A stretch of DNA of 64,000 bases. Origin: an uncultured Gammaproteobacteria bacterium. GTDB lineage: Bacteria; Patescibacteriota; Patescibacteriia; VMEV01; CAZAJQ01. Where the stretch lies: assembly GCA_964485795.1 (NCBI GenBank), contig CAZAJQ010000002.1, forward strand, positions 65,043-129,042. Direction: 5' to 3'. Of the stretch, positions 5,250 to 54,262 are shown piece after piece. The notes beneath the pieces were generated by a model. That model saw nothing but the letters and a program-made list of their open reading frames with translations. It had not been told where the DNA came from and did no database searches. The first letter of the stretch is position 1. Every line of letters begins with the position of its first letter. The translations under genes and the position numbers were made by a program.

Positions 5250-5286
5250 ACATCGCTCATGAAAAATTTCTATGGCCTCAACGCCT

Positions 5287-30150: not shown

Positions 30151-31989
30151 TCACTTGGCATTGACGATCGCTTTGATTCTTCGGATTCCGGAGCCGCAGG
30201 ATTCTTCCTTGGTGATGCGAAACCCTTTCAATTCTCCCGTACGATTCACATGAGGACCGCCGCAAATCTCGACGGAAAAATCACCGACGGTATACACTTT
30301 CACTTTTTCTCCATATTTTCCCTCAAAAAGACCTATGGCACCGCGTTCCTTGGCTTCTTTCACGGTCATCTCCTCATAAGTCACCGACATATCTTTCGCG
30401 ATTTGCTCATCGACGATTTTTTCCACGGCGCGGATTTCGGCGTCCGTCATTTTTCTCTCAAAATTGAAATCAAATCGAAGGCGGTCTTTGGTGATATTGC
30501 TTCCTTTTTGATTCACATGGTTTCCCAGCACCTGTTTCAAGGCTCGATGAAGGAGATGGGTGGCGGTATGGAGTTTCGTAGTTTCGTCGCTGGCATCCGC
30601 GAGTCCGCCCTTGAACATGCCTGCTGACGCGGTTCGCGAAAGCTCCCGATGCTTCTTCATCTCCTCTTCAAAAGCCGCCCGGTCGATCGAAACGCCATTT
30701 TCCTTGGCCAATTCTTCGCTCATTTCATAGGGAAACCCATAGGTCGAGAAGAGAACAAAAGCTTCTCTTCCGGACAAACTCCCGGATTGAGCCGATTTTT
30801 CAAACATTTTCAATCCCGTGTCCAAAGTTTCACGAAATTTCCTCTCTTCGCGCTTCATTTCGTCGACGATAAATGCCTTGCGCGGTTCCAAATGCGCATA
30901 ATGGTTTGAAAAAAGTCCGATGATCGTATGCGCGATATCCGCAAGAAAATCCTCTTTCATGCCGATATGATCGCCAAACCGTATGGCTCGACGAATGAGT
31001 CGGCGAGTAAAATAGCCCTGCGCCATATTCGAAGGTACGGCACCGTCGGCGAGTATGAATACCGCGGCCTTGATATGATCGGCGATGATTTCAAAGGCGC
31101 GATATTCGTTTTCATACGATTTCCCCGAAAGTTCGGATATTCGCCTCATGATCGGCATGAAAAGCTCGGTGGTAAAGACATTGTCCTTGCCTTCATGAGC
31201 CATTGTGAGCCGCTCGAATCCTCCTCCAAAGTCGATGTTTTTGTTTTGCAATTCTTCCCAGCCATTTTCGGATTTTTTGTACTGCATAAATACCGAATTG
31301 CCGATCTCGATGAATCGTCCGCAATCGCAGTTTACATGACAGTATTTTCCGTACTTCGCATCATGTTCCTTGCCGGTATCATAAAACGTTTCGGAATCCG
31401 GCCCCCCCGGCTCCCCGACCGCATCTCCGCGCTGCCACCAATTTTTATCCACATAAGCAAATATCCTTTGATTGCCGCCAAAATGAATTTCCACTCCGGG
31501 TCCGTCTTCGCCTTTTCCGGACGTTTGGGGCCCCTCTTCGGCCTTGATGCCGTATTTCTGAAACACTTCCTTGAGAATTTCAATGGCTTGAGTATCCTTT
31601 GGTGCATCTTTGGATCCGCCGTACACGGTTTGATACAGTCGACCTGAATCGAGTTTCAACACTTCGACAAGAAATTCATACCACCATGAAAGCTGTTCTT
31701 TTTTGAAGTAATCACCCAGCGACCAATTTCCGAGCATTTCAAAAAGCGTATTATGACGATGATCGCCGACTTCCTCGATGTCTTTGGTGCGAAACGAAGG
31801 CTGGCTATTGCAAAGTCGCTTCCCTGCCGGATGTTTTTCGCCGAGCAAATAAGGAACCAGAGGAAACATCCCCGAATTCACAAAAAGCAAACTGGGATCG
31901 TTTTCAGGAATAAGTGAAGCCGCACTGATGATGGCATGGCCTTTGGATGCGAAAAAATCAAGATAGGATTTGCGAAGTTCAAAGGGGGA
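30151..31989 (-). CDS. alaS: Alanine--tRNA ligase, short form lacking the C-Ala domain
   Basis: MSPFELRKSYLDFFASKGH...LLFVNSGM...FEMLGNWSLGDYFK... (catalytic domain), then HTATHLLHRALKQVLG and CGGPHV (editing domain). The protein ends about 30 aa after the editing domain. Start set at the MSPFEL Met. The ORF-track start at 32142 adds 51 non-conserved residues. Confidence 0.9.
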   Translation of the reverse strand, partial: SPFELRKSYLDFFASKGHAIISAASLIPENDPSLLFVNSGMFPLVPYLLGEKHPAGKRLCNSQPSFRTKDIEEVGDHRHNTLFEMLGNWSLGDYFKKEQLSWWYEFLVEVLKLDSGRLYQTVYGGSKDAPKDTQAIEILKEVFQKYGIKAEEGPQTSGKGEDGPGVEIHFGGNQRIFAYVDKNWWQRGDAVGEPGGPDSETFYDTGKEHDAKYGKYCHVNCDCGRFIEIGNSVFMQYKKSENGWEELQNKNIDFGGGFERLTMAHEGKDNVFTTELFMPIMRRISELSGKSYENEYRAFEIIADHIKAAVFILADGAVPSNMAQGYFTRRLIRRAIRFGDHIGMKEDFLADIAHTIIGLFSNHYAHLEPRKAFIVDEMKREERKFRETLDTGLKMFEKSAQSGSLSGREAFVLFSTYGFPYEMSEELAKENGVSIDRAAFEEEMKKHRELSRTASAGMFKGGLADASDETTKLHTATHLLHRALKQVLGNHVNQKGSNITKDRLRFDFNFERKMTDAEIRAVEKIVDEQIAKDMSVTYEEMTVKEAKERGAIGLFEGKYGEKVKVYTVGDFSVEICGGPHVNRTGELKGFRITKEESCGSGIRRIKAIVNAK

Positions 31990-32025
31990 CATAGAAAAAA
32001 AATTAACGGCTTCACATGAAATTGT

Positions 32026-32054
32026 ACTATACAAAAAATCTCGTGGATAGACAA
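32026..32054 (-). promoter_or_regulatory. Candidate sigma70 promoter for alaS (TTGTCT, 17 nt spacer, TATAGT on minus strand)
   Basis: Reverse complement reads ttgtctatccacgagattttttgtatagt, about 35-65 nt upstream of the alaS ATG. Confidence 0.4.
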
Positions 32055-32074
32055 ATAAGCGTCGGCGGAAGGTT

Positions 32075-32135
32075 GAAAGGGAGTTGGGGGAGGTTGGGGT
32101 GGACACAGAGGTCCACGCCAACTCCACCCCAACTC
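32075..32135. repeat. GC-rich imperfect palindrome (GGTTGGGG / CCCCAAC-type arms) upstream of the alaS promoter
   Basis: gggagttgggggaggttggggtggac-acagag-gtccacgccaactccaccccaactcc. Arms about 24 nt with a few mismatches or indels. No U-run. Confidence 0.5.
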
Positions 32136-32201
32136 CACTCAAACCCCACCCAAGTCGACCTATTCCAGCGTAGCCTTCCGAGGATTTCTTTTTTTAACAA
32201 A

Positions 32202-32232
32202 AAAAAATCCCTTCATAAGAAAGGATTTTATA
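32202..32232 (-). terminator. Putative terminator of the lipoprotein gene
   Basis: Minus strand reads aaATCCTTTCttatgAAGGGATTttttttttg: imperfect stem plus a T-run. Lies 25 nt past the stop at 32255. Confidence 0.4.
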
Positions 32233-32254
32233 AAAACAAAATATATAAAAAAAT

Positions 32255-33397
32255 TTATTTAAGCACTACAAACCACCCTACTTGAACGGAAATTTGGCCG
32301 GTGGCGTCAATCAAATTTCCGGAAAGATCAAAAATTTTATATTTCGTATTCCCGCCAAAAGTCAATCTGACGGGACCGCTGGTATTGTTATAGATAACAA
32401 CACATTTTAATCTCTCAATGTACTTGACCACCGTGGGAGTGGTGGCAACATCAAAACTCATGTCGAGAAAACTGCTCCCACTTTGAACCCCGGTACCCAT
32501 ATCCAGCCCGTAGTCATGCTTTGCTGGGTTCAACCTCAAAGCATTTTCTCTCGGCCCTGCCTTGGTCAGGGACAGGAAGATTTTATTCCAACCGAGGCTA
32601 TCGAGCCATAAAACGAGACCGATAAATGAAAGTTCCAAATCGTGCTTGGCCTGATCTGTTGTTGCACCGGTTTGATCTCCCAAAATTAAATAAGAATTTA
32701 ATTTTGGAAAGCCATTCTGAACTAAGGTGGAATAAAATTGCCCGGGATTTGAGTTTTGATCGCCGGATATAATCCCTGGATCATTCCTTAACCCGGTCTC
32801 AGTATAAGGCAGCCCCACGAGATTATTGAACCCTCCCCAAGACCCCCATGTTTGAAATCCGGCATTTTTGAATTCCTGCCAGAGATCTTTCAAATTTGGA
32901 ATCACTTCGTCCATCGTGTCCATAAACACTCCTTCCTGGTAAGCGAATCCAGGACGATGATTTTGAACATAACTGACGCAATACTGCCTCACGGATGAAT
33001 CTTCCAACTTTACCCTTACGATATCGGTTGGGATGCTAGGATTGGGAACAAGCTGGGCATCACTAAAGCCGAACTTGGTCATCAAATCCGTTTTTTTCCC
33101 CTTCACCGGTAAATAGATCAAAACTGTTCCCTGACCTAGTGGACGCAAGAAATCAATTTTGGATGTGGAATCAAAGAATGACACCCAGCCATTGATAAGC
33201 AAGAATGCATCAGATAATGCTTTGGCCTCATTATAAGAAATGAGGTGACCAAAAACTTTTATCTGATAATCCGCAGGGGGGGCAGCCAAGGGAGCGGAGG
33301 TGGTTTGAGTTTTGGGCTTATAGTTTTTCACCTCAATACCACAGCCAGTAAGTAACAGAGCCATAACACCAAGAACGAGCACAGCATTCATCTTCAT
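32255..33397 (-). CDS. Hypothetical lipoprotein (signal peptide plus lipobox LLTGC)
   Basis: MKMNAVLVLGVMALLLTGCGIEV... The mature part is rich in G/N/T/Q/S with no recognisable domain. Strong SD (TTAGGAGAtttctcATG) at the MKMNAV start. Confidence 0.55.
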   Translation of the reverse strand: MKMNAVLVLGVMALLLTGCGIEVKNYKPKTQTTSAPLAAPPADYQIKVFGHLISYNEAKALSDAFLLINGWVSFFDSTSKIDFLRPLGQGTVLIYLPVKGKKTDLMTKFGFSDAQLVPNPSIPTDIVRVKLEDSSVRQYCVSYVQNHRPGFAYQEGVFMDTMDEVIPNLKDLWQEFKNAGFQTWGSWGGFNNLVGLPYTETGLRNDPGIISGDQNSNPGQFYSTLVQNGFPKLNSYLILGDQTGATTDQAKHDLELSFIGLVLWLDSLGWNKIFLSLTKAGPRENALRLNPAKHDYGLDMGTGVQSGSSFLDMSFDVATTPTVVKYIERLKCVVIYNNTSGPVRLTFGGNTKYKIFDLSGNLIDATGQISVQVGWFVVLK

Positions 33398-33745
33398 GAG
33401 AAATCTCCTAATCAAAATAAAAAAATGTACGGTATTTACCATCACACCTCTTCAACCAATTTCCGCTGAAATTCGTCAAAAAAGGTGTGATGCCAAATAT
33501 TTCTTGAATGCGTATTTTTATACTATTTTTCATATTTTGTCAAATTTTCACGCTAATGAATAACCTCTGTTTCCGCTCTCTGTGATAATGACTCTACTCC
33601 CTCCTTCTTATTTTCAAACCTCTCAAAACGTCCCAACAAAGCCGCGGAGCTATATTTTTGAATCAACCTCCTTCACTATTTCGCATCATAGTAAATATAG
33701 GCGGCTTGCATTTCCTTTATATTAGCCAATTATCCTCTAATCTAG

Positions 33746-33774
33746 TTGACATCATTAACAAAATATGATATTTT
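33746..33774 (+). promoter_or_regulatory. Sigma70-like promoter (TTGACA, 17 nt spacer, TGaTATTTT extended -10) for the 33822 gene
   Basis: ttgacatcattaacaaaatatgatatttt, followed by SD GGCGGAGGAAAG 5 nt before the ATG. Confidence 0.5.
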
Positions 33775-33821
33775 GTTTAGTTGTTGAAATTCTGATTTTA
33801 AAGTTATTTTAGCCACAAAAA

Positions 33822-35162
33822 GTGGCGGAGGAAAGATTCATGGAAAGAAAAATCTTTTTGGCAATTTTTTTTATCTTTACAATTTTTTTGGGGAATGAAG
33901 TGCTAGCGTTTGGTCAGGAAGAATTTAAAGTTTATCTCAATCCGAAATTCATCAATGACCCTGATACCATTGATAGCTGGAGATCAATGTCTGATCTCTT
34001 GATCAAAGGTATTGACAGTCTGGATCAGGCGCTCAAGCAAGATCCATACGGACGCGGCATGTGGAGACTCGCATCTTTTGGACTCTTATGGTTGCATACG
34101 GAAGGGGAATCTACTTTGATACATGAGAGAGGGCACAGAAGGCTCCATGAGAATTATCTAGGAGTTCGAAAATTCCGTCTGGAAACCAAGGATAAGACAC
34201 ACTCGGTGTCTGCCAATTATCTCACGGAATATCTGTATGGCATCGGCGCCTATGGATATGAGACGCATTTTTATACCTCATTCATAACTGCTGACCAGCT
34301 CACTGAGTTCATGCAAAGATACTCAGATAAAGTAGGAGAAAACCCAGAGAAGCACTTTCAAACTACTGGATTATATTATGGCGATGGGCTAAATCGACAA
34401 CAATATGCTTCAGAAGAGTTAGAGGGGAGGTTCCTGCAAGAAAAAGTGCATCCGCTCCATGGCGTGTCATATTTTGATAACATGCGCAGCGCGCTCTTCT
34501 ATGGAGGAATTGAAAATCAAACTTTTGGGGATCCTTATAATTATATCAAGTGGGCTCGCTATGGTGACGTCCGAACATCAATGAAAGATTTGAAGTATCA
34601 TTCTCAGATACCAAAAATTCTTCTCTCGAGAACGAGTTGGGTGGCCTCACTTGGGGTAGTAGGATGGCTTCTCATCCCAAGAACCATAGAAGAAAACTGG
34701 AAAAAAATTCTCAACCTTGGTAGCTTTCTACTGCCAAAAAAAATGGGAAGAATTTTCATGCCTGACTTTGCGACATATCTCACCTCGCAGGGGGTAACAT
34801 GGAAAACGACCGTTCCATGGAAGTCACCAGTGGGAATATGGCAACTCTCGGCAGAGACCAACGCCATCTTCAACAATGTACGGGGGAAGGCCATCAGTGA
34901 AATTTCTCTGAAATATGATTCCGCTTATTTCCGAGACATGTTCCGGTGGTCAAATAAACTCGTGCTCAATCTCAACGGGAGAGGGTTCTGGAATGAGACT
35001 GAACTGGGACTGAAATTCCCCATCGGTCTCGAAGTCGGTGTCAAGTATAGCGTTGGATACGGCTTCACATACTGGAGAGAAGTAGGCGGAAATACGGCAT
35101 ACTTCCTCAAAGAGCGTGAGGTGAATTTCAAACTCTATCTCAAATACGATCTCAGTTTCTAA
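33822..35162 (+). CDS. Secreted hypothetical protein with HExxH motif and C-terminal beta-strand-rich region ending in Phe
   Basis: N-terminal signal peptide (IFLAIFFIFTIFLGNEVLAFGQ). HERGH matches the HExxH zincin motif. The C-terminus is alternating aromatic/hydrophobic (...VGYGFTYWREVGGNTAYFLKEREVNFKLYLKYDLSF). Strong SD. Confidence 0.55.
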   Translation: MAEERFMERKIFLAIFFIFTIFLGNEVLAFGQEEFKVYLNPKFINDPDTIDSWRSMSDLLIKGIDSLDQALKQDPYGRGMWRLASFGLLWLHTEGESTLIHERGHRRLHENYLGVRKFRLETKDKTHSVSANYLTEYLYGIGAYGYETHFYTSFITADQLTEFMQRYSDKVGENPEKHFQTTGLYYGDGLNRQQYASEELEGRFLQEKVHPLHGVSYFDNMRSALFYGGIENQTFGDPYNYIKWARYGDVRTSMKDLKYHSQIPKILLSRTSWVASLGVVGWLLIPRTIEENWKKILNLGSFLLPKKMGRIFMPDFATYLTSQGVTWKTTVPWKSPVGIWQLSAETNAIFNNVRGKAISEISLKYDSAYFRDMFRWSNKLVLNLNGRGFWNETELGLKFPIGLEVGVKYSVGYGFTYWREVGGNTAYFLKEREVNFKLYLKYDLSF

Positions 35163-35192
35163 AAATTGGAAAGGAATTTGTTCATTATAAAA

Positions 35193-35230
35193 ACCTCTTT
35201 TTACAAGGAGGTTTTTGTTTTTTCATAAAA
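35193..35230 (+). terminator. Putative rho-independent terminator after the 33822-35162 gene
   Basis: aaAACCTCTTtttacaAGGAGGTTtttgtttttt. Confidence 0.4.
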
Positions 35231-35345
35231 AATAAATATCCAAGTTGACTTTTTTATATTTTTATTATTATATATTCAGTTACGGTTTAATCGTTAGTAC
35301 TTTGATATTTTTTACTTTTATGCCCATAGAGGGCAGGGAGTTGCC

Positions 35346-36152
35346 ATGAAAAATTGGATTAATTTTATTGATATTTCCTGTGAGCTGCAGGAAATTGAAA
35401 AAGGAGAGAAAATGCAAAAAGAGGGGTATGATAACATGCAGCTCAAAAATCTAGATGCTGATCCAGAGATTATAGCCATGGAAAATGAAATCAAAAAAAT
35501 TAAGAAAAAAATTGATGAAGTGAAAAAGGAAAAAGCATGTCATGAAATAGCCCTTATGGAACGTGGAGCAGCGCTTCGGATACATGGAACTGAAACCATT
35601 GAAAAAAAATTCAGCGAGTTTATGAACCGCGCCGAAAACGGGGAGCTGGGAGTCGGGCATCTCGCCTTGGTGAAGAGCATTCCACCCTATTTTGCTCGAT
35701 TGCTGTGTATCAATGGAATGGAATTCGCTTGCGTCAATTCCAGCAAAATTCTCGGCCATCACATATATCCCAGTCTGTTCAAGGATTTCAATTCAGGGAA
35801 GGTAAAGGATATCTATATAAAGGTAAAATCAATCGACCATACAGAAATCAATCTCAATGACGCAAAAGCTCTCTTTGAGCGAATCGCCATGGAAATGATT
35901 CAGCTCGGAGAAATTTTGAATCCTTTCTGTAAAATCCCCGGCTTCGAAATCCCTATCGGGGTATGCTATTTGCTCTCGGAAAAAGGCGATTCTGACCGAG
36001 TCACCTATGGAGCGAGATTAAACTCAGGGAGGTATGCACTGGTGGATAAAAAATTTGAGCTGAATTATTTTTCCATCGATCCCTATGGCAAAATCCATGT
36101 CGAGGGAATGCCAGAAGATCACGCAGACGTAGAGAAGTTCTTTAAAAAGTAA
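35346..36152 (+). CDS. Hypothetical protein with N-terminal coiled-coil (268 aa)
   Basis: Lys/Glu-rich heptad-like N-terminus (EIKKIKKKIDEVKKEKA). No signal peptide. SD AGGGAG 5 nt before the ATG. Family unknown. Confidence 0.5.
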   Translation: MKNWINFIDISCELQEIEKGEKMQKEGYDNMQLKNLDADPEIIAMENEIKKIKKKIDEVKKEKACHEIALMERGAALRIHGTETIEKKFSEFMNRAENGELGVGHLALVKSIPPYFARLLCINGMEFACVNSSKILGHHIYPSLFKDFNSGKVKDIYIKVKSIDHTEINLNDAKALFERIAMEMIQLGEILNPFCKIPGFEIPIGVCYLLSEKGDSDRVTYGARLNSGRYALVDKKFELNYFSIDPYGKIHVEGMPEDHADVEKFFKK

Positions 36153-36173
36153 TTTATTTTTTCAAAAGGATCA

Positions 36174-36210
36174 TAAAAAAACCGCGCATACAAAAACGCG
36201 GTTTTTTTTC
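36174..36210 (+). terminator. Rho-independent terminator (plus-strand gene 35346-36152)
   Basis: aaaaaaACCGCGcatacaaaaaCGCGGTtttttttc: perfect GC stem plus a T-run. Confidence 0.55.
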
Positions 36211-36221
36211 GTTTTAATGAC

Positions 36222-36256
36222 AAAAAAAGGGAGAGAAACATTTTCTCTCCCTAAAA
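36222..36256 (-). terminator. Rho-independent terminator of the Cys-rich precursor peptide gene
   Basis: Minus strand reads GGGAGAGAAAatgTTTCTCTCCCttttttt: 10-bp perfect stem, 3-nt loop and a 7-U run. Lies 6 nt after the peptide stop codon. Confidence 0.6.
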
Positions 36257-36261
36257 TTCAG

Positions 36262-36426
36262 TTATTTCCTACAATTGCAGTTGCAATTGCAAGCATTGTC
36301 TCCGCACTTTCCGGAACATTGACTCCCATTAGTTTTGGGGGTAATGCCAGATGGCTTCACTGCCGGGACAATCTTTGTAACAAGATGTTTCTCGAGCAGT
36401 ATTTTTTTCATCTGCGCAGTAGACAT
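36262..36426 (-). CDS. Cys-rich small peptide, candidate RiPP precursor (54 aa, six Cys in the C-terminal 18 residues)
   Basis: Manual translation of the minus strand: MSTAQMKKILLEKHLVTKIVPAVKPSGITPKTNGSQCSGKCGDNACNCNCNCRK*. SD GAAAGGAGG (36432-36440) sits 5 nt before the ATG. Dedicated terminator. The gene begins 73 nt downstream of a radical-SAM/SPASM gene on the same strand. Absent from the ORF track because it is under 60 aa. Confidence 0.6.
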   Translation of the reverse strand: MSTAQMKKILLEKHLVTKIVPAVKPSGITPKTNGSQCSGKCGDNACNCNCNCRK

Positions 36427-36431
36427 TGCTG

Positions 36432-36440
36432 CCTCCTTTC
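36432..36440 (-). promoter_or_regulatory. Shine-Dalgarno site (AAAGGAGG) of the precursor peptide gene
   Basis: Reverse complement of cctcctttc. 5 nt spacer to the ATG at 36426. Confidence 0.5.
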
Positions 36441-36499
36441 TGAGTAAAATATTTCAGAAACTTCTCACACTTCAGCCTTATTCGATAGGTATCACCTCC

Positions 36500-37537
36500 T
36501 TACATAGGAATAACTTCCCTAGGATCATATACAAACCATAATAAAGGACAACCGCCACCGCATTCATGATATTGTTTGCAATTCAGACAAGTTTCCGCAG
36601 GAATTCTCACGAGCATGTCATTAAACTCTCGTCTCTCAGAAGTATCCCAAAACGTTTGTAACCCTTCCGCATCACTGAAGTCTTCCCCGAGTTTACCGAG
36701 TGTAAAACCATGCATGGCGTTACAGGGGATAATCCTTCCCCGATCATCAAATATCACACCGCTCCGTTGCATAACATGACATCCGCTATAAATCTGATTC
36801 CTTTCTTTCAAAAGCTTTGAAAACTCCTGAGAAAAAAGACAGAAAGGGAGTGAAACATGTATCGAGAGCTTTTCACCAACTCTTTCATAGAGTCTCGGGT
36901 AAATCTCTTCAAATTTCTTTGCAGCGTTTTTCGGATCAATCATACACCCTTTTTCTGCCACTAAATTCGTATTAAAGGTCGTCGTGCAAAATTCCAACGA
37001 TACATGCGGAGCACCATTTTTACATGCTATATTCACCATTTCATCAAGATTCCCTATATTTAATTCGGTGATGGTAATAGATACGCTGAATCCAATGTTT
37101 GATTGCGATAAATTTTGGATTGCAGCTAGAACCTTGTGAAAATTATTCGCCTTTGTAAGACGCCTTTGCTGTTCTTCATTGCCAGCTTTCAAAGAGACAC
37201 TCACGTTTAATTTCAAACCATCAAATTTTTGAAGATATTTAGGGTCTGAAAAGCGAACACCATTACTGACCACCACAGGATAAAGATCCATATCATTGGC
37301 GCATGATATAAGCTCTGGTAGAGGTTTCCAGAGGGTTGGTTCACCACCCAAAATCTTTGGGCTCAAAATCCCCAAATCTCGAGAAATCTGCAAATATTGT
37401 TTCGCTTCATCAAACGTCATCTGAGAACTTGGAGTAAATCCTGTGGAACTCGCATAGCACCAACTGCATCGCAACTGACAAGCACGGTTAACGGTAATCC
37501 AGATACCAGAAATACCGTTATCTGTTTTCTGATCCAT
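36500..37537 (-). CDS. Radical SAM enzyme with C-terminal SPASM domain (putative peptide maturase, anSME-like architecture)
   Basis: CQLRCSWCY (CxxxCxxC) at residues 21-28. GGEPTL SAM-binding motif. C-terminal CHVMQ...IIPCNAMHG...ETCLNCKQYHECGGGCPLLW (Cx2Cx5Cx3C) is a SPASM/twitch auxiliary cluster signature. SD AAAGGAG 7 nt before the ATG. 345 aa. Confidence 0.85.
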   Translation of the reverse strand: MDQKTDNGISGIWITVNRACQLRCSWCYASSTGFTPSSQMTFDEAKQYLQISRDLGILSPKILGGEPTLWKPLPELISCANDMDLYPVVVSNGVRFSDPKYLQKFDGLKLNVSVSLKAGNEEQQRRLTKANNFHKVLAAIQNLSQSNIGFSVSITITELNIGNLDEMVNIACKNGAPHVSLEFCTTTFNTNLVAEKGCMIDPKNAAKKFEEIYPRLYERVGEKLSIHVSLPFCLFSQEFSKLLKERNQIYSGCHVMQRSGVIFDDRGRIIPCNAMHGFTLGKLGEDFSDAEGLQTFWDTSERREFNDMLVRIPAETCLNCKQYHECGGGCPLLWFVYDPREVIPM

Positions 37538-37602
37538 GATAAGGCTCCTTTATTAAAAAAATTCTTAAACAACTACCCATTAAGTATTCAACATATATAG
37601 CA

Positions 37603-38739
37603 CTATCCGGCTATATTCTTCAAGCTTTCCACGATCACCCCTCCCCCGATCAGCTTCTCGCCTTTATAGAAAACCGCCGACTGGCCGGGCATGACGGCAC
37701 GCTGGGGGCTATCGAATTCAATGCGATACCGCCCGTCTCCAAGCTTTTCCATCACGAACGCCGGCTCGCGATGATGATATCGGATGGAGCAGATCACCGA
37801 CATGGGAAGAATCGGCAGTTTTCCGTCAATCCAATTTGTGGATTCGCAAACCAAAGTTTTTGAAAACAGCTTGGGATCATTGCGATCATAGGAAACTTCA
37901 AGGATATTGTCATCGTAATTCAGACCAACCACATACATCGGCCCGATACCGCCAAGCTTGATTCCTTTTCTCTGTCCGAGCGTATAGAGCGGCAAACCGT
38001 CATGCTTTCCGACAACATGGCCATTGCTATCAAGAATATCTCCGGGTACGAGCACAAGATGACGCTTCAAAAATGGATACTGATCTTTTTCTTTGTAAAA
38101 ACACACTTCCTGACTGTCCGGCTTTTTTGCGGTCGGGAGGCAATAGTCTTCGGCCAGTTTGCGAACTTCGGTTTTTCTAAAATTGCCGAGGGGAAACAGG
38201 ATACGCTTCATCTGACTTTGCGTGAAATGATACATGAAATACGACTGATCTTTTTTCTCGTCAATGCCGCGAAGCAAAGCATGGCTCCCATCGGATTCCT
38301 TTCTGATGCGCGCATAATGACCGGTCGCGACGGCATCGCAGCCGAGCTCATCGGCACGATTGAGAAACTCGCCGAATTTCACGAATTGATTGCAATTCAG
38401 GCATGGATTGGGTGTCAATCCGCTTTGGTATTTGCGAATGAAGTCATCCACGACTTTTTCCTTGAACGTTTTTCGAAAATTAAGCGTGTAAAGCGGAAAC
38501 CCGTACGAATGAGCGATTCTTCGAGCCCCTTCATAGGCGTCCAGATCGCAACATTTATTTTGAGCCGAATCCATCGTCAAAGTGTCAAATTTCACATCCG
38601 CGGAGTCCAAGGATTCCTCCCAAAATTTCATAAAGATGCCGACCAAATCATGCCCTTTTCCAGCAAGCATCGCGGCAACGACGGAGCTGTCCACTCCGCC
38701 CGACATGGCCACGAGAATTTTCTTTCGAGCTCTTCCACT
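37603..38739 (-). CDS. mnmA: tRNA-specific 2-thiouridylase
   Basis: KILVAMSGGVDSSVVAAML PP-loop, catalytic Cys residues and the C-terminal beta-barrel. Start set at the MSGRARKK internal Met. Confidence 0.9.
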   Translation of the reverse strand, partial: SGRARKKILVAMSGGVDSSVVAAMLAGKGHDLVGIFMKFWEESLDSADVKFDTLTMDSAQNKCCDLDAYEGARRIAHSYGFPLYTLNFRKTFKEKVVDDFIRKYQSGLTPNPCLNCNQFVKFGEFLNRADELGCDAVATGHYARIRKESDGSHALLRGIDEKKDQSYFMYHFTQSQMKRILFPLGNFRKTEVRKLAEDYCLPTAKKPDSQEVCFYKEKDQYPFLKRHLVLVPGDILDSNGHVVGKHDGLPLYTLGQRKGIKLGGIGPMYVVGLNYDDNILEVSYDRNDPKLFSKTLVCESTNWIDGKLPILPMSVICSIRYHHREPAFVMEKLGDGRYRIEFDSPQRAVMPGQSAVFYKGEKLIGGGVIVESLKNIAG

Positions 38740-38928
38740 CATATATAAAAAATCGAAACTTTTGAGTTTCGCTTTTAAACAGCTTAAATTAGAATATTTG
38801 CGTTTGGAAGTCAACTTTTCTAGAGACAGTCTCAAGAATCTCGCGCAATGGTGAATTTAAAACCTCATAAGAGGCTGCATAACCCAAGACCGTTCGAGGT
38901 TTGCCATCGAGAAGTGCTTGCACACGCT

Positions 38929-39348
38929 TCACTTATCGGCGCTCATCCGATCCAGCGCTTCATTCACCAGCGTATCCGCATGCTTATTTTTTTCCCGCGG
39001 AATATGATGGAACCGAACTTTTTTGAAATTCGAAAGAAAATTCCAAACCTCAAGATAGATGACCGCGATATCCGGATGTTTCACCCTGTACACTCGCTTC
39101 AGCTGCTTCACCACGAGCAAGGAGTCCAAAAAACAATCCACCTCCTCGGCTCCCAGTTCTTTCGCTTTATGCAGTCCTGCAAGGAGCGCCCGATACTCGG
39201 CCTGATTGTTCGTCGTGCTCCCGATATATTTTGAAACCGTCGCAACGACCTCATTTGTTTTGCCGTCCGATATCACCGCCCCGATCCCGGCCGGCCCGGG
39301 ATTTCCCCTCGCTCCTCCGTCAGAAAAAATTACGACTTTTTTATGCAT
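38929..39348 (-). CDS. rnhA: Ribonuclease HI
   Basis: VVIFSDGGARGNPGPAGIGAV...NNQAEYRALLAGL...DSLLVV...HIPREKNKHADTL. RNase H type-1 DEDD motifs. Confidence 0.85.
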   Translation of the reverse strand: MHKKVVIFSDGGARGNPGPAGIGAVISDGKTNEVVATVSKYIGSTTNNQAEYRALLAGLHKAKELGAEEVDCFLDSLLVVKQLKRVYRVKHPDIAVIYLEVWNFLSNFKKVRFHHIPREKNKHADTLVNEALDRMSADK

Positions 39349-39379
39349 ATCTTCTCCGTCAAAAAAAAATCACAAAACA

Positions 39380-41125
39380 TCACTTTGAAGATGTCCCCGA
39401 TACCTTTCTCATATCGATGATCTTGAGCTGCAATTCCCGATTGCCGTTCCATTCATTCACATCAATCTCATACACGATATCCACCGTATCGCCAGCAGCA
39501 AGCATGCCGACCCAATGCCCGAGCTGAAAACCGATGCATTTTCTTTTCGCTTTCCCGTCGGTAAGCGTCATTTGCAAATGCTTCTGATCTTTTCCCACGG
39601 CGCGAACCGTATCAAGTGACAATCCATAGCTAACAAACTTGATGGGAGGATTGGCTTCTCCGAAGGGTTCGAACTTTTTGACCTCATCATAGGTTGTCCA
39701 GCTAATGTCGGAAAACGGCAATTCAAAATCTATGCCGATCTCCGGTATGAGATCCTTGCCGGAAAGCTGCCGTTTGGCTTCAGCAAGCATTCGTTCATGA
39801 AATTTTTCAAACGAAGCGTCCGACGCCAAGCTGAATCCGCAGGCGGCTTTATGTCCGCCGAATTTCGCGAGCATGTCCTTTTGATGCGTGATGGCCATGA
39901 TGCAATCGTATCCCTTGATGCCTCTTCCCGACCCGGCGATGAACTCATTGAGATTGCCCAAAATATAAGTGGGGCGATAAAATCTTTCGGCTACCTTTCC
40001 GGCAACAAGCCCAGCAAGTCCGATATTCCAATGTTTTTTATACAGCAAAATCGCAGGAGCGTCCGCATCATACGACTTCATCTCCAAAAGCACCTCTTCA
40101 AACATCTGATCGGTGGTCGCTTTTCTTTTTTGATTGTTCTCTTCGATTTTTTGAGCCAAATCATACGCGGTATTCGGATCCTCGCTCATCAGCAGCTCAT
40201 ACGCGAGACTGGCATGATCCATCCTTCCGGCGGCATTGATGCGAGGAGCCACGGCAAAAGCGATATGGTATGTGCTCACCGTGTCTTTTTCGGGATGCAA
40301 TTTCACACCCGCATTGTTGAGCAAATAACGAAGCCCCAGACGACGCGTCTTGTGCAAGACGATGAGCCCATACTTCACCAAGGTGCGATTTTCGCCGACC
40401 AGCGGAACCAGATCGGCCACCGTGCCGATCGCGGCCAAATCAAGCAGCCACTTTTCAAATGCCCTACAGGCAGCGACTTCGGTCTCGTCCGCTTCGCACG
40501 ATCGAAGCAGCAGCCCCTGCGCAAGCTTGAACGCCACTCCGGCACCGGCCAATTTTTTAAATGGATACTTCTCTCCGGAAACTTGGGGATGAAGTGTCAG
40601 ACAATCCGGCAATACCTCCGGAGGATGGTGATGATCCGTCACCATCACCGTCATGCCCATCTCCTTCGCCAACGCTATTTCTTTTTCATTGCTAATGGCG
40701 CAGTCAACCGTGATGATGTGTCGCGTTCCTTTGTCCCTGAGATACTCAAGCGCCTTCACGTTCAAACCGTATCCTTCCTTCTCCCGATGCGGCAGGTAAG
40801 CGTCAACCTCGGCTCCCAGCTTTTTGAGCGTGCTGACAAGGATCACGGTTCCGCTCACACCGTCGGCATCATAGTCTCCATACACTGTTATTTTTTCATG
40901 TTTGCGGATGGCGTCAAAAATATGCGCGACGCATTTTTCCATCTGCGAAAACAAAAAAGGATGATGGATGTCCAAAGCGTAATCCGCGTTCATGAATTCA
41001 TCCACCTGCTCCTGCGTTTTGAGATCGCGATCGTAGAGAAGCTGCAAAACGAGCGGCTGAATTTCGGGAAATCGGAGTCGAAATTCCTCGGGAGCCTGTG
41101 TTTTGATAATCCACTTTTTTTCCAT
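39380..41125 (-). CDS. recJ: Single-stranded-DNA-specific exonuclease RecJ
   Basis: DHH (ITVYGDYDADGVSG...VTDHHHP) and DHHA1 domains, plus a C-terminal OB fold. 581 aa. Confidence 0.9.
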   Translation of the reverse strand: MEKKWIIKTQAPEEFRLRFPEIQPLVLQLLYDRDLKTQEQVDEFMNADYALDIHHPFLFSQMEKCVAHIFDAIRKHEKITVYGDYDADGVSGTVILVSTLKKLGAEVDAYLPHREKEGYGLNVKALEYLRDKGTRHIITVDCAISNEKEIALAKEMGMTVMVTDHHHPPEVLPDCLTLHPQVSGEKYPFKKLAGAGVAFKLAQGLLLRSCEADETEVAACRAFEKWLLDLAAIGTVADLVPLVGENRTLVKYGLIVLHKTRRLGLRYLLNNAGVKLHPEKDTVSTYHIAFAVAPRINAAGRMDHASLAYELLMSEDPNTAYDLAQKIEENNQKRKATTDQMFEEVLLEMKSYDADAPAILLYKKHWNIGLAGLVAGKVAERFYRPTYILGNLNEFIAGSGRGIKGYDCIMAITHQKDMLAKFGGHKAACGFSLASDASFEKFHERMLAEAKRQLSGKDLIPEIGIDFELPFSDISWTTYDEVKKFEPFGEANPPIKFVSYGLSLDTVRAVGKDQKHLQMTLTDGKAKRKCIGFQLGHWVGMLAAGDTVDIVYEIDVNEWNGNRELQLKIIDMRKVSGTSSK

Positions 41126-43202: not shown

Positions 43203-43538
43203 TTAGGCGTCAGTAACTTCCATCGCTTCAAACACCTTGTATTGCAGCGGATTTCTGACAATAAGTTTATTCCTCTCCAGCGCCATCTTCAGGAGTTTCA
43301 TCTGAAGAGGTTTCCCTACGGAAATTTCGAGTTGACATTCGCCATCATCACAATAAGCGAAGATTCCTTCATTGCAAAGACTCGATCCTGCATACCCGCG
43401 CTGAATCTTTAAAAGAAAAACACTTCCCGTCTTCTCCACGAGGATTTTCATGCATGTGATCGAATAGACAACGTCTTCTTTAACAGAAAATCGCTTCTGT
43501 TCCCCTACCCTGAAAAAAAACTCAGTTTCCGAATTCAT
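43203..43538 (-). CDS. Hypothetical protein (111 aa from internal Met)
   Basis: ORF in the operon orientation downstream of the ligase-like membrane protein. No confident family (PilZ-like considered, not supported). Confidence 0.3.
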   Translation of the reverse strand: MNSETEFFFRVGEQKRFSVKEDVVYSITCMKILVEKTGSVFLLKIQRGYAGSSLCNEGIFAYCDDGECQLEISVGKPLQMKLLKMALERNKLIVRNPLQYKVFEAMEVTDA

Positions 43539-43629
43539 CTTTATTTCCTTTCCAACCGTTGAAAAATAAGAAAACATTCGAGCACAACAAGAAAAAAATA
43601 TACCATGAAATTCGATAGCGTACAACCTT

Positions 43630-45189
43630 TCATGCCTCCCTTTCCACATCGATCAAAAGTTTTCTCTCGATAATCACGGCAACCGCCATCACATATGCGA
43701 TGCCCAGCGGATGATTCAGGTAGGGCGTGAACATATGCACCGCAAGCAAAGCAAAAAAACTCAAAAGCATTCCAAAAAGATACGCCACGAATTCTTGATT
43801 TCCGCGCTTCTCGGCCGCAAAAAATTGCCGTACGCCTCGATAGCCTATTGCGCAAAGGAAGGTCAAATAGGCCATCATGCCCAAGAAACCCATTTTCAGC
43901 CATTGATCCAAATACCCCCATTCAAAAGCCGACGTCGTGATCACCCCGCTTCCGCCGGTTTGTTTGCGAACGGTCGGGTCATTGGAAACATAGGTGACGG
44001 CAGCGCCGAACCCTTTACCGAAAAAAAATTTCCCCGAAATCGAATTCCAAAGCGGCGGAAGCATCTGAAAACGGGTTGACAGCGCGGCCTCATCTTCATA
44101 GCCAAAGGCTCGGCTGGAAAAAACGTCCAATGCGTTGAAATCTTTTGCCGAAGGAATGGGAAATTTCACGGTAATCACGATCAGAATCAAAGCTAAAAAA
44201 ATGGTGGAAAAAATCAAACATCCTTGCAAAAAAATCCCTTTCCAAAACGATTTTGAATACCATGAAAAAATGATGATCCAAACCAGCGACGCCGCAAGCC
44301 CCGCGACCCAAAAACTTCTCGAAAAACTCATGAGCAGGACGGCTCCAAAAATCACCATGTGGCCATACCAAAAAAGCTGAACGCCGCTTAATCGCAGTGA
44401 TGCCTTTTTTACCTGCGGGAGAATATAAAAAACGCTGACGCAAACGGTGAGTATGAAAAATATCATCAAAGCATATATTTGGCTTTGGAAAAAAATGCGA
44501 TAAAAGGGCTCTTGCACTTTTGTGATTTCTCCCACGCGGGTATCTCTCACCCATGTATAGACGATTTTTAATATCGGGAGAAAAAAGGGATGTGAAAACA
44601 GATACAGCAAAACGAACATTTTTAAAATACCTCCCCACAAAGCTCCCAAAAGAACGGAAAGAAAAGTTTTCAAGCGATCTATTGAGATAAACGTTTCAAA
44701 AAGGGGGAAAAAATATGCATAATACAAAAATCCGTTTACATCAAAAAAAATCTCCCGCCTGTCGTTTCCGCTCAAAAATCCGTTGATGACACCCCATATC
44801 AAAAAAAGAAAAAAAATACCGGAGAAGATTATAGGCACTCGCAATGATGAATTTAACAATCGAGGAAATGATAGAAACGATTGATATTTTCGATCGAGGA
44901 GAAATCTTACAAACCAAATACCCATCACGCAAACAAAGATTCCCACTCGCAAAGAAAGCGAAACCCCACCGACGTTGAGCGCCAGCACATACCCCCATGA
45001 TCCGATCATCAGCTCGGTAAAGGCGGCGTAGAGTCCATATTCGAGGCGACGCAATGCGGCGCAAACGACGGCGACGATGACAGCGACAAAAAAATACGGT
45101 TCCAAAACCGGTACGATATGCGCCAAGAGTGAAATCACTTCCACGCAAACGACGCCGAGAAAACTCAGCAACATGATTTTCTTTTTCAT
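43630..45189 (-). CDS. Polytopic membrane protein, O-antigen ligase/polymerase-like (Wzy_C-type)
   Basis: About 12 predicted TM helices and a large periplasmic loop. Sits beside a GT4 glycosyltransferase and a Wzx flippase. Confidence 0.45.
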   Translation of the reverse strand: MKKKIMLLSFLGVVCVEVISLLAHIVPVLEPYFFVAVIVAVVCAALRRLEYGLYAAFTELMIGSWGYVLALNVGGVSLSLRVGIFVCVMGIWFVRFLLDRKYQSFLSFPRLLNSSLRVPIIFSGIFFLFLIWGVINGFLSGNDRREIFFDVNGFLYYAYFFPLFETFISIDRLKTFLSVLLGALWGGILKMFVLLYLFSHPFFLPILKIVYTWVRDTRVGEITKVQEPFYRIFFQSQIYALMIFFILTVCVSVFYILPQVKKASLRLSGVQLFWYGHMVIFGAVLLMSFSRSFWVAGLAASLVWIIIFSWYSKSFWKGIFLQGCLIFSTIFLALILIVITVKFPIPSAKDFNALDVFSSRAFGYEDEAALSTRFQMLPPLWNSISGKFFFGKGFGAAVTYVSNDPTVRKQTGGSGVITTSAFEWGYLDQWLKMGFLGMMAYLTFLCAIGYRGVRQFFAAEKRGNQEFVAYLFGMLLSFFALLAVHMFTPYLNHPLGIAYVMAVAVIIERKLLIDVEREA

Positions 45190-51224: not shown

Positions 51225-51611
51225 TTATGTCTTCTGACCGGTAAGCTTGCGTCCGCTTCCCATGGTCTTGCGAACGTTTCCTCGGACGGTGCGGCTATTG
51301 GTCTTGGTTCTCTGCCCTCTCACCGGAAGACGCTTGGCATGACGAATGCCTCGATAGCAATTGATTTCGCGAAGCAAACGAATATTCAGAAGCTTTTGGC
51401 GACGAAGATCTCCTTCAACGACCATTTTTTTTACGGCATCACGAATGAGATTGACCTGATCGTCGGAAAGGCTTTTGGTGCGGATGCTTTTGTCGATCCC
51501 AAGATCATCCAAAATGCGTACCGACATTTTACGACCGATGCCATAAATGTACATGAGTGCGACCTCGATTCTTTTGTTATCCGGCAATGCCACTCCTGAG
51601 ATGCGTACCAT
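51225..51611 (-). CDS. rpsM: 30S ribosomal protein S13
   Basis: MVRISGVALPDNKRIEVALMYIYGIGR... Confidence 0.95.
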   Translation of the reverse strand: MVRISGVALPDNKRIEVALMYIYGIGRKMSVRILDDLGIDKSIRTKSLSDDQVNLIRDAVKKMVVEGDLRRQKLLNIRLLREINCYRGIRHAKRLPVRGQRTKTNSRTVRGNVRKTMGSGRKLTGQKT

Positions 51612-51646
51612 AAAAAAAATTTAATTCTCTAAAGAATACATTTGGA

Positions 51647-51763
51647 TTATCCCTGTCTCTGTTTATGCTTGGCGATTTTTTTACAAATCACCACCACTCG
51701 CCCTTTGCGTCTGGTGATGATGCAATCCTTGCAGATTTTTTTGACCGATGCTCTGACTTTCAT
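51647..51763 (-). CDS. rpmJ: 50S ribosomal protein L36 (38 aa; missed by ORF track)
   Basis: Manual translation: [38 protein letters not shown]. Canonical L36 with a CxxC...C...H zinc ribbon, in the expected infA-rpmJ-rpsM position. Confidence 0.85.
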
Positions 51764-51800
51764 AAACCAAAAGTTCGTAAGATAATTTTATCTGAAACCA

Positions 51801-52019
51801 TCAATATCGATAGACGATTCTTCCCTTGGTAAGATCATAGGGACTGAACTCGATCTTTACTTTGTCCCCGGGCATGACTTTGATCTTGTGCATGCGAATC
51901 TTCCCCGACAGATGCGCTAAAATCGTATGACCGTTTTCCATGGTCACGCGAAACCGCGCTGCGGGTAAAGCTTCAAAAACGGTACCGTCCATGGTAAGGA
52001 CTTCTTTACCCTGCGTCAT
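51801..52019 (-). CDS. infA: Translation initiation factor IF-1
   Basis: [72 protein letters not shown]. Confidence 0.95.
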
Positions 52020-52131
52020 AGCTGAATACCTTCAAAGAAAAAAAATGAATCATGCAGAGAATCAATAAAAAATATGGATATACCTCTGATACCCACATTT
52101 GATCTTTTGGCTGAAAATCGTACTTTTTTGA

Positions 52132-52158
52132 ACATTAATGATAGTATACGGGTTCAAA
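52132..52158 (-). promoter_or_regulatory. Candidate sigma70 promoter for infA-rpmJ-rpsM... (TTGACT, 16 nt spacer, TATACT on minus strand)
   Basis: Reverse complement reads ttgacttttctttttgaacccgtatact, about 110 nt upstream of infA. Confidence 0.35.
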
Positions 52159-52290
52159 AAGAAAAGTCAAGGATTGCGCTGCCGTATCGAGCAGCTCAAT
52201 GTCTTCGAAGCACAAAAAATCAATAAATAAACCTCCTTTCTCGACTTGCTATGAAACAAGTGAAAAAAGAGGTTTAAACGTGATACGCCC

Positions 52291-53649: not shown

Positions 53650-53752
53650 ACATTAGTAAATCTCATCACGAAAGTCAAAAATAAGAAATAAAAAAGCCTC
53701 CCTTGTATCGTTTCTTGTTACAACACGCGGGAGGCAATATTCCTGTTTTAAA

Positions 53753-54001: not shown

Positions 54002-54262
54002 TCTTTTTTATCCTTTCATAAAAAAGCAGTCCATATCCTAAAACTTTTTTTAAGGTTTCACTAAACCCCTTTTTCTTACATGCTCATGTCCTTTGAGGTT
54101 TTCAGAGTTTTTTTCGTTGGCCTCCTTCATCTGAAAAAACCTACCTTTCTTTATTTCTTTATCAAAACAACGAACAAAACAACAAATAGTATCCACTCCA
54201 AGCTCGGAAGTCAAGCTATCGCATTGAATCCCCCCTTGGTATACAAACGACTTCTTGTCATT

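Follow-up and report, generated by a model that had tools for sequence, protein, structure and literature searches.

A small accessory island with a radical-SAM/Cys-rich peptide cassette, probably acquired horizontally, between mnmA and alaS of a Patescibacteria chromosome

In the 64-kb window (the whole stretch of DNA that was analysed) the core genes alaS and mnmA are separated by a block of accessory genes, which raises the question whether this block was brought in from elsewhere or is an old part of the chromosome that has evolved fast. The first-pass annotation had placed it between two conserved housekeeping genes, and profile matches identify both: alaS (30151–31992, minus strand) matches NF002436 with 709.6 bits and mnmA (37603–38742, minus strand) matches NF001138 with 403.9 bits. 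At the protein level they are 70% (alaS, in an alignment beginning at residue 1) and 61% (mnmA) identical to their counterparts at the related locus L007. The ATG at 31992, which has no Shine-Dalgarno (SD) sequence, was taken as the true alaS start; a longer TTG-started ORF reaching to 32142 was rejected as spurious. The intervening block (31993–37602) measures 5.6 kb. Five genes lie in it, with the radical-SAM (rSAM) gene included and not, as had been counted before, in addition: a lipoprotein gene (32255–33397, minus strand, 380 aa), the gene of a HExxH protein (33840–35162, plus strand, 440 aa), the gene of a 268-aa protein (35346–36152, plus strand), a Cys-rich peptide gene (36262–36426, minus strand, 54 aa) and a rSAM/SPASM gene (36500–37537, minus strand, 345 aa, PF04055 at 1.7e-17). 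A search for extra SD-led small ORFs within the island gave none. The genes thus occupy both strands, while the surrounding core genes are all on the minus strand, as first described. We consider it probable that the block is a lineage-specific, horizontally acquired islet of 5.6 kb, carrying a rSAM/peptide cassette together with three other genes.

The strongest indication comes from synteny. The five-gene set is missing between mnmA and alaS in all five Patescibacteria relatives that were found (mnmA 50–61% identical). In three of them mnmA is directly followed by alaS, with gaps of 64 nt (L007, mnmA 61% identical), 135 nt (L096, 56%) and 80 nt (L097, 51%); in the other two (L008/L009, 52%, and L098, 50%) one small ORF sits between the two genes. 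L007 conserves the entire order lepA-recJ-rnhA-mnmA-alaS-nifS-117aa-mraY, without the island. Because mnmA and alaS are neighbours in all five relatives, we read the block as an insertion. Its site would be the short spacer between two ancestrally adjacent genes of a Patescibacteria/CPR chromosome.

In a metagenome-derived contig, an abrupt change of composition such as the one seen here could also arise from joining the DNA of two organisms. We regard such an assembly chimera as extremely improbable, since independent assemblies of two runs tile the island at 100% identity. With the junctions taken as ~32150 and ~37570, three Logan contigs (L099, L003 and L001; runs SRR12113424 and SRR12113383) cover 30322–39766 including the interior and both junctions, and where contig tails do not match, they consist of Nextera adapter sequence. 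Both of the runs in which the host organism occurs contain the island.

The block had further been described as AT-richer than its flanks by eye, and the calculation agrees. Its GC content is 0.402 compared with 0.463 in the remainder of the window, the lowest value among all 5.4 kb windows (outside mean 0.462, sd 0.014, minimum 0.426). GC3 of the island genes is 0.36–0.46 against 0.528±0.039 in core genes (p=9e-5), the log-likelihood per codon is -0.07 to +0.01 against 0.10±0.037 (p=3e-6), and the L1 distance of coding tetranucleotides is 0.353 against 0.141±0.015 for core genes, with a core maximum of 0.168. All four measures therefore set the island apart from its flanks. The unannotated genes of L008 are shifted the opposite way, to higher GC (GC3 0.586 vs 0.359), which argues for exchange among lineages of differing GC and against a uniform drift towards AT.

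Synteny break and composition shift together support the first-pass reading of a horizontally acquired or fast-evolving island. They also have to be weighed against a second history, in which the segment is ancestral, the sampled relatives each lost it separately, and its odd composition and want of close homologues reflect fast evolution of weakly constrained accessory genes. The lineage is thinly sampled, the nearest mnmA being 61% identical; no relatives could be detected for the lipoprotein or the 268-aa protein; and the small ORFs in the mnmA-alaS spacer of L008 and L098 indicate that the slot is variable. However, loss would be required in all five relatives, three of which have spacers of only 64–135 nt, and GC3, codons and tetranucleotides deviate even in the gene of a conserved enzyme (rSAM, GC3 0.36). 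The GC-rich deviation of the unannotated L008 genes fits this history poorly as well, and we consider it unlikely. The data can be explained without fast evolution, which may have acted on the lipoprotein and the 268-aa protein.

If the island was acquired, it shows no visible means of insertion: integrase, transposase, tRNA and flanking direct repeats are all absent. Pfam, NCBIfam and PHROG searches gave no integrase, transposase or other mobility domain in the five island proteins and a tRNA scan gave no tRNA gene in the whole 64-kb window, so that the earlier impression of ends free of integrase, transposase and tRNA holds. The sole direct repeat spanning the boundaries is 19 nt long with an 84% match and lies within coding sequence. 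These absences count against a decayed prophage, integrative element or plasmid insertion, a reading to which the occurrence of the rSAM family on viral contigs of IMG/VR and the spread of the genes over the two strands, with separate signals for each gene, lend some colour. Those viral contigs number just 2 of 2.9 million, however. Apart from generic radical-SAM matches of the rSAM enzyme there was no significant match in PHROG and none in PADLOC, and searches of the phage, plasmid and IMG/VR collections gave no match for either the lipoprotein or the 268-aa protein, which makes such an element very unlikely. The islet, which has no mobility machinery of its own, may have arrived by recombination after DNA uptake.

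All five island genes are preceded by AGGAG/GGAGG-type SD sequences (-7.3 to -11.9 kcal/mol): AGGAG for the lipoprotein gene, GGAGG for the HExxH gene, GGGAG for the gene of the 268-aa protein, AAGGAGG for the peptide gene and AAGGAG for the rSAM gene. Only 4 of 45 core genes have one at the first ATG (Fisher p=6e-5), in line with the contrast between strong SDs in the island and an SD-poor core that had been noted earlier. Core genes without SD, here and in the relatives, recall the SD-independent translation reported for Bacteroidia and for Parcubacteria without anti-SD motif; of the 16S genes of Parcubacteria, only 48% are reported to show this motif (PMC7797042, PMC13000453, PMC9297842). 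The host differs from these systems in carrying near-perfect SDs on a minority of its genes, mostly unannotated or accessory ones, the five of the island among them.

This contrast admits an explanation by gene class: accessory, envelope and independently transcribed genes would be SD-led and core operons not, and the island would be a mere cluster of such genes. Counted over six loci from related genomes, a strong SD stands in front of 16 of the 31 genes that lack a Pfam match but of only 9 of the 70 that have one (p=9e-5). HExxH-family genes at three related loci (L091–L093) have an SD and their immediate neighbours do not, and about 90% of the distinct cassette peptides described below have a strong SD. 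Since strong SDs thus also precede unannotated genes in SD-poor relatives, an SD alone is no proof of a foreign donor; the contrast is weaker evidence of one than at first sight and may reflect gene class rather than origin. As an account of the whole locus, gene class leaves the synteny break and the shift in GC, codons and tetranucleotides unexplained, and we think it quite improbable in that role. It fits without conflict alongside a shared, horizontally circulating gene pool.

Transcription signals distinguish the island less clearly than the first-pass annotation had suggested. Consensus-like promoters number only two, each matching at 10/12 positions: TTGACA-18-AAAAAT in front of the lipoprotein gene (33514–33543, minus strand) and TTGACA-17-TATTTT, with a TG, in front of the HExxH gene (33746–33774, plus strand). 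The total of promoter-like sites is nevertheless at chance level (27 vs 22.5±4.9). A hairpin followed by a T-run ends each of the four transcription units, as had been described, but such terminators are not distinctive, their density being not significantly above that in the remainder of the window (11/81, p=0.08). Intrinsic terminators follow the lipoprotein gene (32204–32229, minus strand, 11-bp stem), the HExxH gene (35187–35218, plus strand, 14-bp stem) and the peptide gene (36228–36252, minus strand, 11-bp stem with 5 GC pairs), the last of which ranked first in the scan. A further hairpin at ~36181–36211, between the convergent genes of the 268-aa protein and the peptide, has A-runs and T-runs on its sides and was matched by the terminator scan at 36204 (plus) and 36180 (minus); it could terminate transcription both ways.

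At the left edge of the inserted DNA lies an imperfect GC-rich hairpin with 25-nt arms (32079–32147), which occurs once in the 64-kb window. It stands between the island and a promoter-like site of alaS (32026–32054, minus strand; TTGTCT-17-TATAGT, 9/12 match, TG right before the -10 hexamer). The 64-nt mnmA-alaS spacer of L007 also has such a site (TTGATT...TATATT), and a promoter role of the site for alaS is suggested by its sequence. The leader of alaS, 262 nt long, folds with z=-5.5; an Rfam search, including the hairpin, returned no family.

The island's products had been called all secreted or unknown, which is roughly right, with an N-terminal signal-type hydrophobic segment in only two of them. 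The lack of recognisable homologues, also stated for them, applies only to the lipoprotein and the 268-aa protein: 129 matches were obtained for the rSAM enzyme, 46 distinct relatives for the peptide and 24 remote ones for the HExxH protein. The lipoprotein has a signal peptide, its single hydrophobic segment at the N-terminus, and a lipobox (MKMNAVLVLGVMALLLTG directly before the Cys, LLTG/C) that follows the pattern [LVI][ASTVI][GAS]C after the signal peptide. It forms a singleton cluster, with no homologue in Pfam, NCBIfam, PHROG, PADLOC, PDB, phage, plasmid and IMG/VR searches. The 268-aa protein is cytoplasmic, carries a short helix rich in K and E close to its N-terminus, and has no homologue in the profile libraries and the phage, plasmid and IMG/VR collections; two weak PHROG matches (E 0.03–0.05) are not significant.

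The HExxH protein consists of a signal peptide, a helical domain containing the motif and a C-terminal beta-meander of ~150 aa whose last residue is Phe. The motif lies within the modelled helix 69–107, and all 24 sequences compared share H95, E96 and H99. Fold searches gave beta-barrel matches only; a PDB sequence search and Pfam searches with all 24 family members gave none, and neither a described peptidase family nor a third zinc ligand was found. We describe it as a putative secreted zinc metalloprotease whose C-terminal beta domain is porin-like. Its family is small and has so far been found in CPR genomes, with one member in Candidatus Jorgensenbacteria and two CPR-like loci.

In the rSAM enzyme, the motif C20-x3-C24-x2-C27 (CxxxCxxC) is invariant in 41 sequences, as are C253, C272, C317, C320, C326 and C330 of the SPASM Cys set, with C233 conserved in at least 90%. 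The C-terminal motif C317-x2-C320-x5-C326-x3-C330 reads CX2CX5CX3C. The Pfam SPASM model does not match the enzyme; JGI labels its homologues "radical SAM protein with 4Fe4S-binding SPASM domain". The peptide gene lies 73 nt downstream and encodes a leader with ...TKIVPAVKPSG... and the core CSGKCGDNACNCNCNCRK. A Cys-rich ORF with the same leader motif and a CxC core follows the rSAM gene at a distance of 14–146 nt at 61 of 80 related loci, and peptide tblastn matches were obtained at L013, L017, L018, L010 and L020. The residue between the Cys of CxC is mainly D (46), N (22) or Q (14). We have seen the rSAM/peptide cassette at more than 450 metagenome loci and found no description of it in curated families and the literature. 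A small HExxH gene follows the peptide at 33–36 of 64 non-redundant loci. The island cassette has neither this gene nor a transporter gene and is therefore perhaps incomplete or inactive.

An enzyme of this kind would most likely modify the CxCxCxC C-terminal core of the 54-aa peptide, probably by cross-linking Cys to Asn/Asp through thioethers, if the analogy with the synthases of sacti- and ranthipeptides holds. As in the synthases SkfB, CteB and PapB, CxxxCxxC is combined with SPASM cysteines, and the gene adjoins that of a short peptide whose leader is conserved and whose C-terminal core is rich in Cys. The nearest solved relatives in a PDB sequence search are SkfB, SuiB, CteB and anSME. 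No N-terminal RRE is present, however: the rSAM core starts at about residue 13 and aligns from residues 113, 136 and 95 of SkfB, SuiB and CteB, respectively. The best peptide-maturase scores are 50–60 bits against cut-offs of 300–625 bits, below those of all named families searched (PapB, StsB, SkfB, ScmE/F, GeoRSP and others); the PapB model aligns over almost the full length and still gives only 53.8 bits against a cut-off of 340. The CxCxCxC core with D, N or Q between the Cys differs from the Cx3D and SCIFF patterns, and from sacti/ranthipeptide systems the cassette is further set apart by its third gene, where present, coding for a small HExxH protein and by its mainly CPR distribution. 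SCIFF shares a short peptide with six C-terminally concentrated Cys next to a rSAM/SPASM gene, but the leader of the island cassette ([ILV]xPxxxPxG) and the Cys spacing are different, and the 54-aa peptide matches no NCBIfam family up to E 0.1 (ten relatives, none up to E 1). The likeness to anSME, an enzyme that acts on Cys/Ser of a protein substrate, extends to the absence of an RRE, a similar length and a full-length alignment (17–327 to 15–330). The island enzyme reaches 42.7 bits against the 349-bit anSME cut-off, and its partner is a small Cys-rich peptide, with no sulfatase gene nearby.

The lipoprotein, the HExxH protein and the 268-aa protein have no tblastn match at the 80 rSAM-cassette loci, which indicates that the cargo is made of separate modules. 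It would comprise at least two unrelated ones in four self-contained transcription units, with an SD for each gene. The closest homologue of any cargo gene is only 43% identical, too distant for a donor to be named. Of the rSAM relatives with a named source, most come from Patescibacteria, Moraniibacteria, WWE3 and Pacebacteria, and one from Erysipelotrichaceae. Other Patescibacteria are the most likely donor, because the placeable rSAM and HExxH relatives are mostly found there and because a survey of 125 Patescibacteria genomes described hundreds of genomic islands, mostly transferred within the phylum (PMC12455944, mSystems 2025). Like those islands, the present one is a compositionally deviant accessory block in a streamlined CPR genome with its placeable relatives in Patescibacteria. 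It differs in its very small size (five genes), in having no mobility gene, tRNA or end repeat, and in occupying a spacer of only 64–135 nt in three relatives. Among the points that weigh against acquisition is the distance of the nearest relative, only 61–70% identical at the protein level, which leaves some room for loss in the relatives.

As islands of this phylum are already documented, the island itself is ordinary, though unusually clean. A wider reading, which we put forward tentatively and hold to be possible rather than probable, is that it samples a clade-wide, horizontally circulating accessory pool of SD-poor Parcubacteria-type genomes, whose genes would be marked by near-perfect SDs, with two initiation modes per cell, and which would also carry an undescribed RiPP class widespread in Patescibacteria (RRE-less rSAM/SPASM enzyme, CxCxCxC peptide and, in most cases, a small HExxH protein). 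The cassette is compact and tractable for heterologous expression, its source organisms being not culturable. A porin-like beta domain in the HExxH family is unexpected, as the host bacteria are thought to lack an outer membrane. Finally, an SD-less core next to accessory genes with strong SDs is a testable pattern that bears on how translation starts in reduced organisms.

The window derives from a Patescibacteria (CPR) genome: among named sequences, its mnmA gene matches best those of Patescibacteria and Candidatus Buchananbacteria (49–52% identity), and nearly all of its genes are carried on the minus strand. Between alaS, which closes the left flank (minus strand, true start at 31992), and mnmA, which opens the right flank (minus strand, stop codon ending at 37603), lies an interval of 5,610 nt with five genes. 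These encode a lipoprotein (32255–33397, minus strand, lipobox LLTG|C), a secreted 440-aa protein with an HExxH motif (33840–35162, plus strand), a 268-aa protein without signal peptide (35346–36152, plus strand), a Cys-rich 54-aa peptide (36262–36426, minus strand) and a 345-aa radical-SAM (rSAM) enzyme (36500–37537, minus strand). No additional small ORF with a Shine-Dalgarno (SD) sequence was found in the spacers of this island. The region is tiled at 100% identity by independent Logan assemblies of two runs (L099 covering 30322–36319, L001 36276–37570 and L003 36788–39766), which rules out an assembly chimera. An island-less variant, considered on account of the unmatched ends of the assembled contigs L001, L002 and L004, was rejected since those ends are Nextera adapter sequence.

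A search of species-representative genomes with mnmA returned a Zetaproteobacteria locus with 41% identity as the sole match, and the clade is therefore not among the species representatives. Gene order was compared on contigs encoding mnmA homologues that were found by protein homology search. In the closest relative, L007 (mnmA 61%, alaS 70% and lepA 72% identical to the genes of the window), the order lepA-recJ-rnhA-mnmA-alaS-nifS-117aa-mraY is exactly that of the window, with a mnmA-alaS spacer of 64 nt. L096 (mnmA 56% identical) shows the order recJ-rnhA-mnmA-alaS with a spacer of 135 nt, and in L097 (51%) the spacer is 80 nt long. Two further relatives carry a single SD-led ORF between mnmA and alaS, of 145 aa in L008/L009 (52%; L008 11202–11639) and of 48 aa in L098 (50%; 9091–9237). 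Both ORFs are unrelated to the island proteins, and DNA may have been inserted repeatedly between mnmA and alaS. The arrangement in the relatives indicates that the adjacency of the two genes is ancestral and the five-gene block lineage-specific. The synteny comparison proposed in the first-pass annotation thus speaks for an insertion relative to all sampled relatives, none of which has the block between mnmA and alaS.

The island had been described as AT-richer by eye, and its GC content is indeed 0.402 compared to 0.463 for the remaining window. This is the minimum among all 5.4 kb windows; those outside the island have a mean of 0.462 (sd 0.014) and a minimum of 0.426. The composition and codon usage tests suggested at the time all separate the island from the core genes: GC3 of its coding sequences is 0.36–0.46 versus 0.528±0.039 in the core (p=9e-5), the log-likelihood per codon under core usage is -0.07 to +0.01 versus 0.10±0.037 (p=3e-6), and the tetranucleotide distance is 0.353 versus 0.141±0.015 in core-gene runs of the same size, the highest of which reaches 0.168. 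Since the GC3 of coding sequence deviates as well, AT-rich spacers are not the sole cause of the shift, and the composition of the island is foreign to its host. In L008 we noticed the reverse direction, with a GC3 of 0.586 in genes lacking a Pfam match versus 0.359 in annotated genes (p=0.001). Since unannotated genes are shifted to higher GC3 there, composition favours transfer over uniform drift. The same core genes have a GC3 of 0.354 in L007 and of 0.528 in the window, which points to a strong shift of genome GC inside the lineage. A second stretch of low GC (0.38–0.41) is located at 51500–54500 and contains the genes 52291–53649 and 53753–54001, with an HD-domain/YfbR-like protein whose codon usage is atypical (0.006 per codon in log-likelihood) and an 82-aa ORF of unknown function. 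This stretch is a candidate for a further accessory patch. Outside the island, codon usage deviates most (-0.018 per codon) in a 148-aa ORF at 43203–43649, which has a GC content of 0.405 and no Pfam match.

The contrast between strong SD sequences in the island and an SD-poor core was borne out. All five island genes are preceded by an AGGAG/GGAGG-type SD (-7.3 to -11.9 kcal/mol), whereas this holds for only 4/45 core genes when assessed at the first ATG (Fisher p=6e-5). The gene at 62926–63624, among just four outside the island that have an SD, encodes a product with a mechanosensitive-channel-type TM helix (PF05552); its SD is a perfect AAGGAGGTGA (-13.2 kcal/mol). Core genes of the relatives are SD-poor as well, and for Parcubacteria, no more than 48% of 16S genes were reported to have a detectable anti-SD motif (PMC9297842). 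Across L007, L008, L097, L098 and two loci of the HExxH family (L092, L093), a strong SD precedes 16/31 genes without a Pfam match but only 9/70 Pfam-matched genes (p=9e-5); the former include the small ORFs in the mnmA-alaS slot of L008 and L098. Genes of the HExxH family are among them too, and their direct neighbours have no SD. Strong SDs thus characterize accessory genes throughout the clade, and the contrast does not prove a foreign donor. It suggests two classes of translation start within one genome, and we found no paper describing such a split between core and accessory genes.

The island comprises four transcription units, each closed by a hairpin followed by a T-run. The dedicated terminators reported earlier are thus present, but such sites are not significantly denser in the island than in the rest of the window (p=0.08). 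Only two consensus-like promoters can be recognized, and promoter-like sites overall do not exceed chance. As no terminator was seen after mnmA, the rSAM-peptide unit may be transcribed by read-through from mnmA, ending at the strong terminator at 36228–36252. On the other side, alaS would be transcribed from its own promoter-like site at 32026–32054, downstream of a GC-rich imperfect hairpin with 25-nt arms (32079–32147). This hairpin is located in the alaS leader (31993–32254), with the last island terminator on one side and the promoter-like site on the other; it occurs once in the window, matches no Rfam family and would not fit into the 64-nt mnmA-alaS spacer of L007. Compared to shuffled sequence, the leader has a much stronger fold (z=-5.5). 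In addition, the 5' leader of the lipoprotein gene contains a 20-nt inverted repeat (33433–33499, 85% complementary, 27-nt loop) within a divergent spacer of unusual length (442 nt).

In the rSAM enzyme, a C-x3-C-x2-C motif is invariant and accompanied by a SPASM-type set of cysteines including C317-x2-C320-x5-C326-x3-C330. Its rSAM core begins at about residue 13, leaving no N-terminal RRE. Its scores fall well short of the curated cut-offs of all NCBIfam families (PapB: 53.8 bits, cut-off 340); its nearest solved relatives are SkfB, SuiB, CteB, MoaA, PqqE and anSME. We found 129 homologues with at best 43% identity, the named ones mostly from Patescibacteria, Moraniibacteria, WWE3 and Pacebacteria and one from Erysipelotrichaceae, and relatives are encoded at no fewer than 454 metagenome loci. 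Only two IMG/VR viral contigs carry this family, one of them with a member of 32% identity (L094, IMGVR_UViG_3300047523_000011, 44 kb; 5001–5999). At 61/80 fetched loci a Cys-rich ORF follows the enzyme gene on the same strand at a distance of 14–146 nt. A leader of the form ...[ILV]xPxxxPxG... and a CxC-rich core are common to the 46 distinct peptides, about 90% of which have a strong SD. Between the cysteines stands mostly D (46), N (22) or Q (14). The peptide of the window conforms to this scheme, with the leader ...KIVPAVKPSG... and the core CSGKCGDNACNCNCNCRK, and has tblastn matches to five cassette loci; no match to a curated peptide family was obtained. By analogy with sacti/ranthipeptide synthases, the enzyme would probably cross-link the Cys-rich core, with D, N or Q between the cysteines as plausible acceptors. 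At 33–36 of 64 non-redundant loci (e.g. L011, L013, L046 and L038) the peptide is followed by a small HExxH protein of 130–220 aa, a candidate leader peptidase for this cassette. These proteins belong to no Pfam family and form two clusters, mutually related at 92% hhalign probability. The window cassette lacks this third gene; the 268-aa island protein and the 440-aa HExxH protein are both unrelated to it (hhalign probabilities ≤8%). In the literature covered, on CPR with rSAM, RiPP or ranthipeptide, we found no description of the cassette.

For the 440-aa HExxH protein, 24 remote relatives with 24–32% identity were detected among 1.8 billion representatives. The residues H95, E96 and H99 do not vary within the family, whose C-terminal strand mostly terminates in F or Y. 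The family has no Pfam or PDB sequence match; Candidatus Jorgensenbacteria encodes one member, annotated as a hypothetical protein, and two loci of the family resemble CPR genomes. AF2 modelling from the alignment gave a high-confidence structure (pLDDT 83.7, pTM 0.85), in which a helical domain with the HExxH motif precedes a beta-meander some 150 aa long. For the lipoprotein, a single-sequence AF2 model was unusable (pLDDT 34.6). Neither the lipoprotein nor the 268-aa protein has a match in Pfam, NCBIfam, PADLOC, PDB, phage genomes, plasmids or IMG/VR, and PHROGs yield only two weak matches for the 268-aa protein (E 0.03–0.05) and nothing for the lipoprotein; judged from these sequence searches, both are candidate orphans.

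Three of the five genes (rSAM, peptide and HExxH) thus belong to families, and the earlier statement that the island genes have no recognisable homologues does not hold for them. Members of these families come mostly, or to date exclusively, from Patescibacteria. The lipoprotein, the HExxH protein and the 268-aa protein do not occur near the rSAM cassette at any of 80 other loci, and the island therefore consists of at least two independent modules. An origin from a phage or a defence system was rejected: apart from the weak PHROG matches of the 268-aa protein, only generic radical-SAM matches were obtained (PHROG, PADLOC viperin models). As noted earlier, integrase and transposase are missing: island proteins have no mobility domain in Pfam or NCBIfam, and neither a tRNA nor an Rfam family was found. 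The proposed search for direct repeats at the boundaries gave none that was convincing. Because integrase, repeat and tRNA are all absent, arrival would have been by recombination rather than site-specific integration. The island would have come horizontally from other Patescibacteria, in agreement with a survey of this phylum that reported many genomic islands and mostly intra-phylum transfer (PMC12455944).

Taken as a whole, the interpretation as an island is supported and the finding is real. The island is a small genomic islet that is not self-mobile and, as a kind of object, ordinary. Of greater interest are the apparently undescribed cassette of rSAM enzyme and CxC peptide, the HExxH family and its porin-like domain, and the way in which SD usage separates core from accessory genes.
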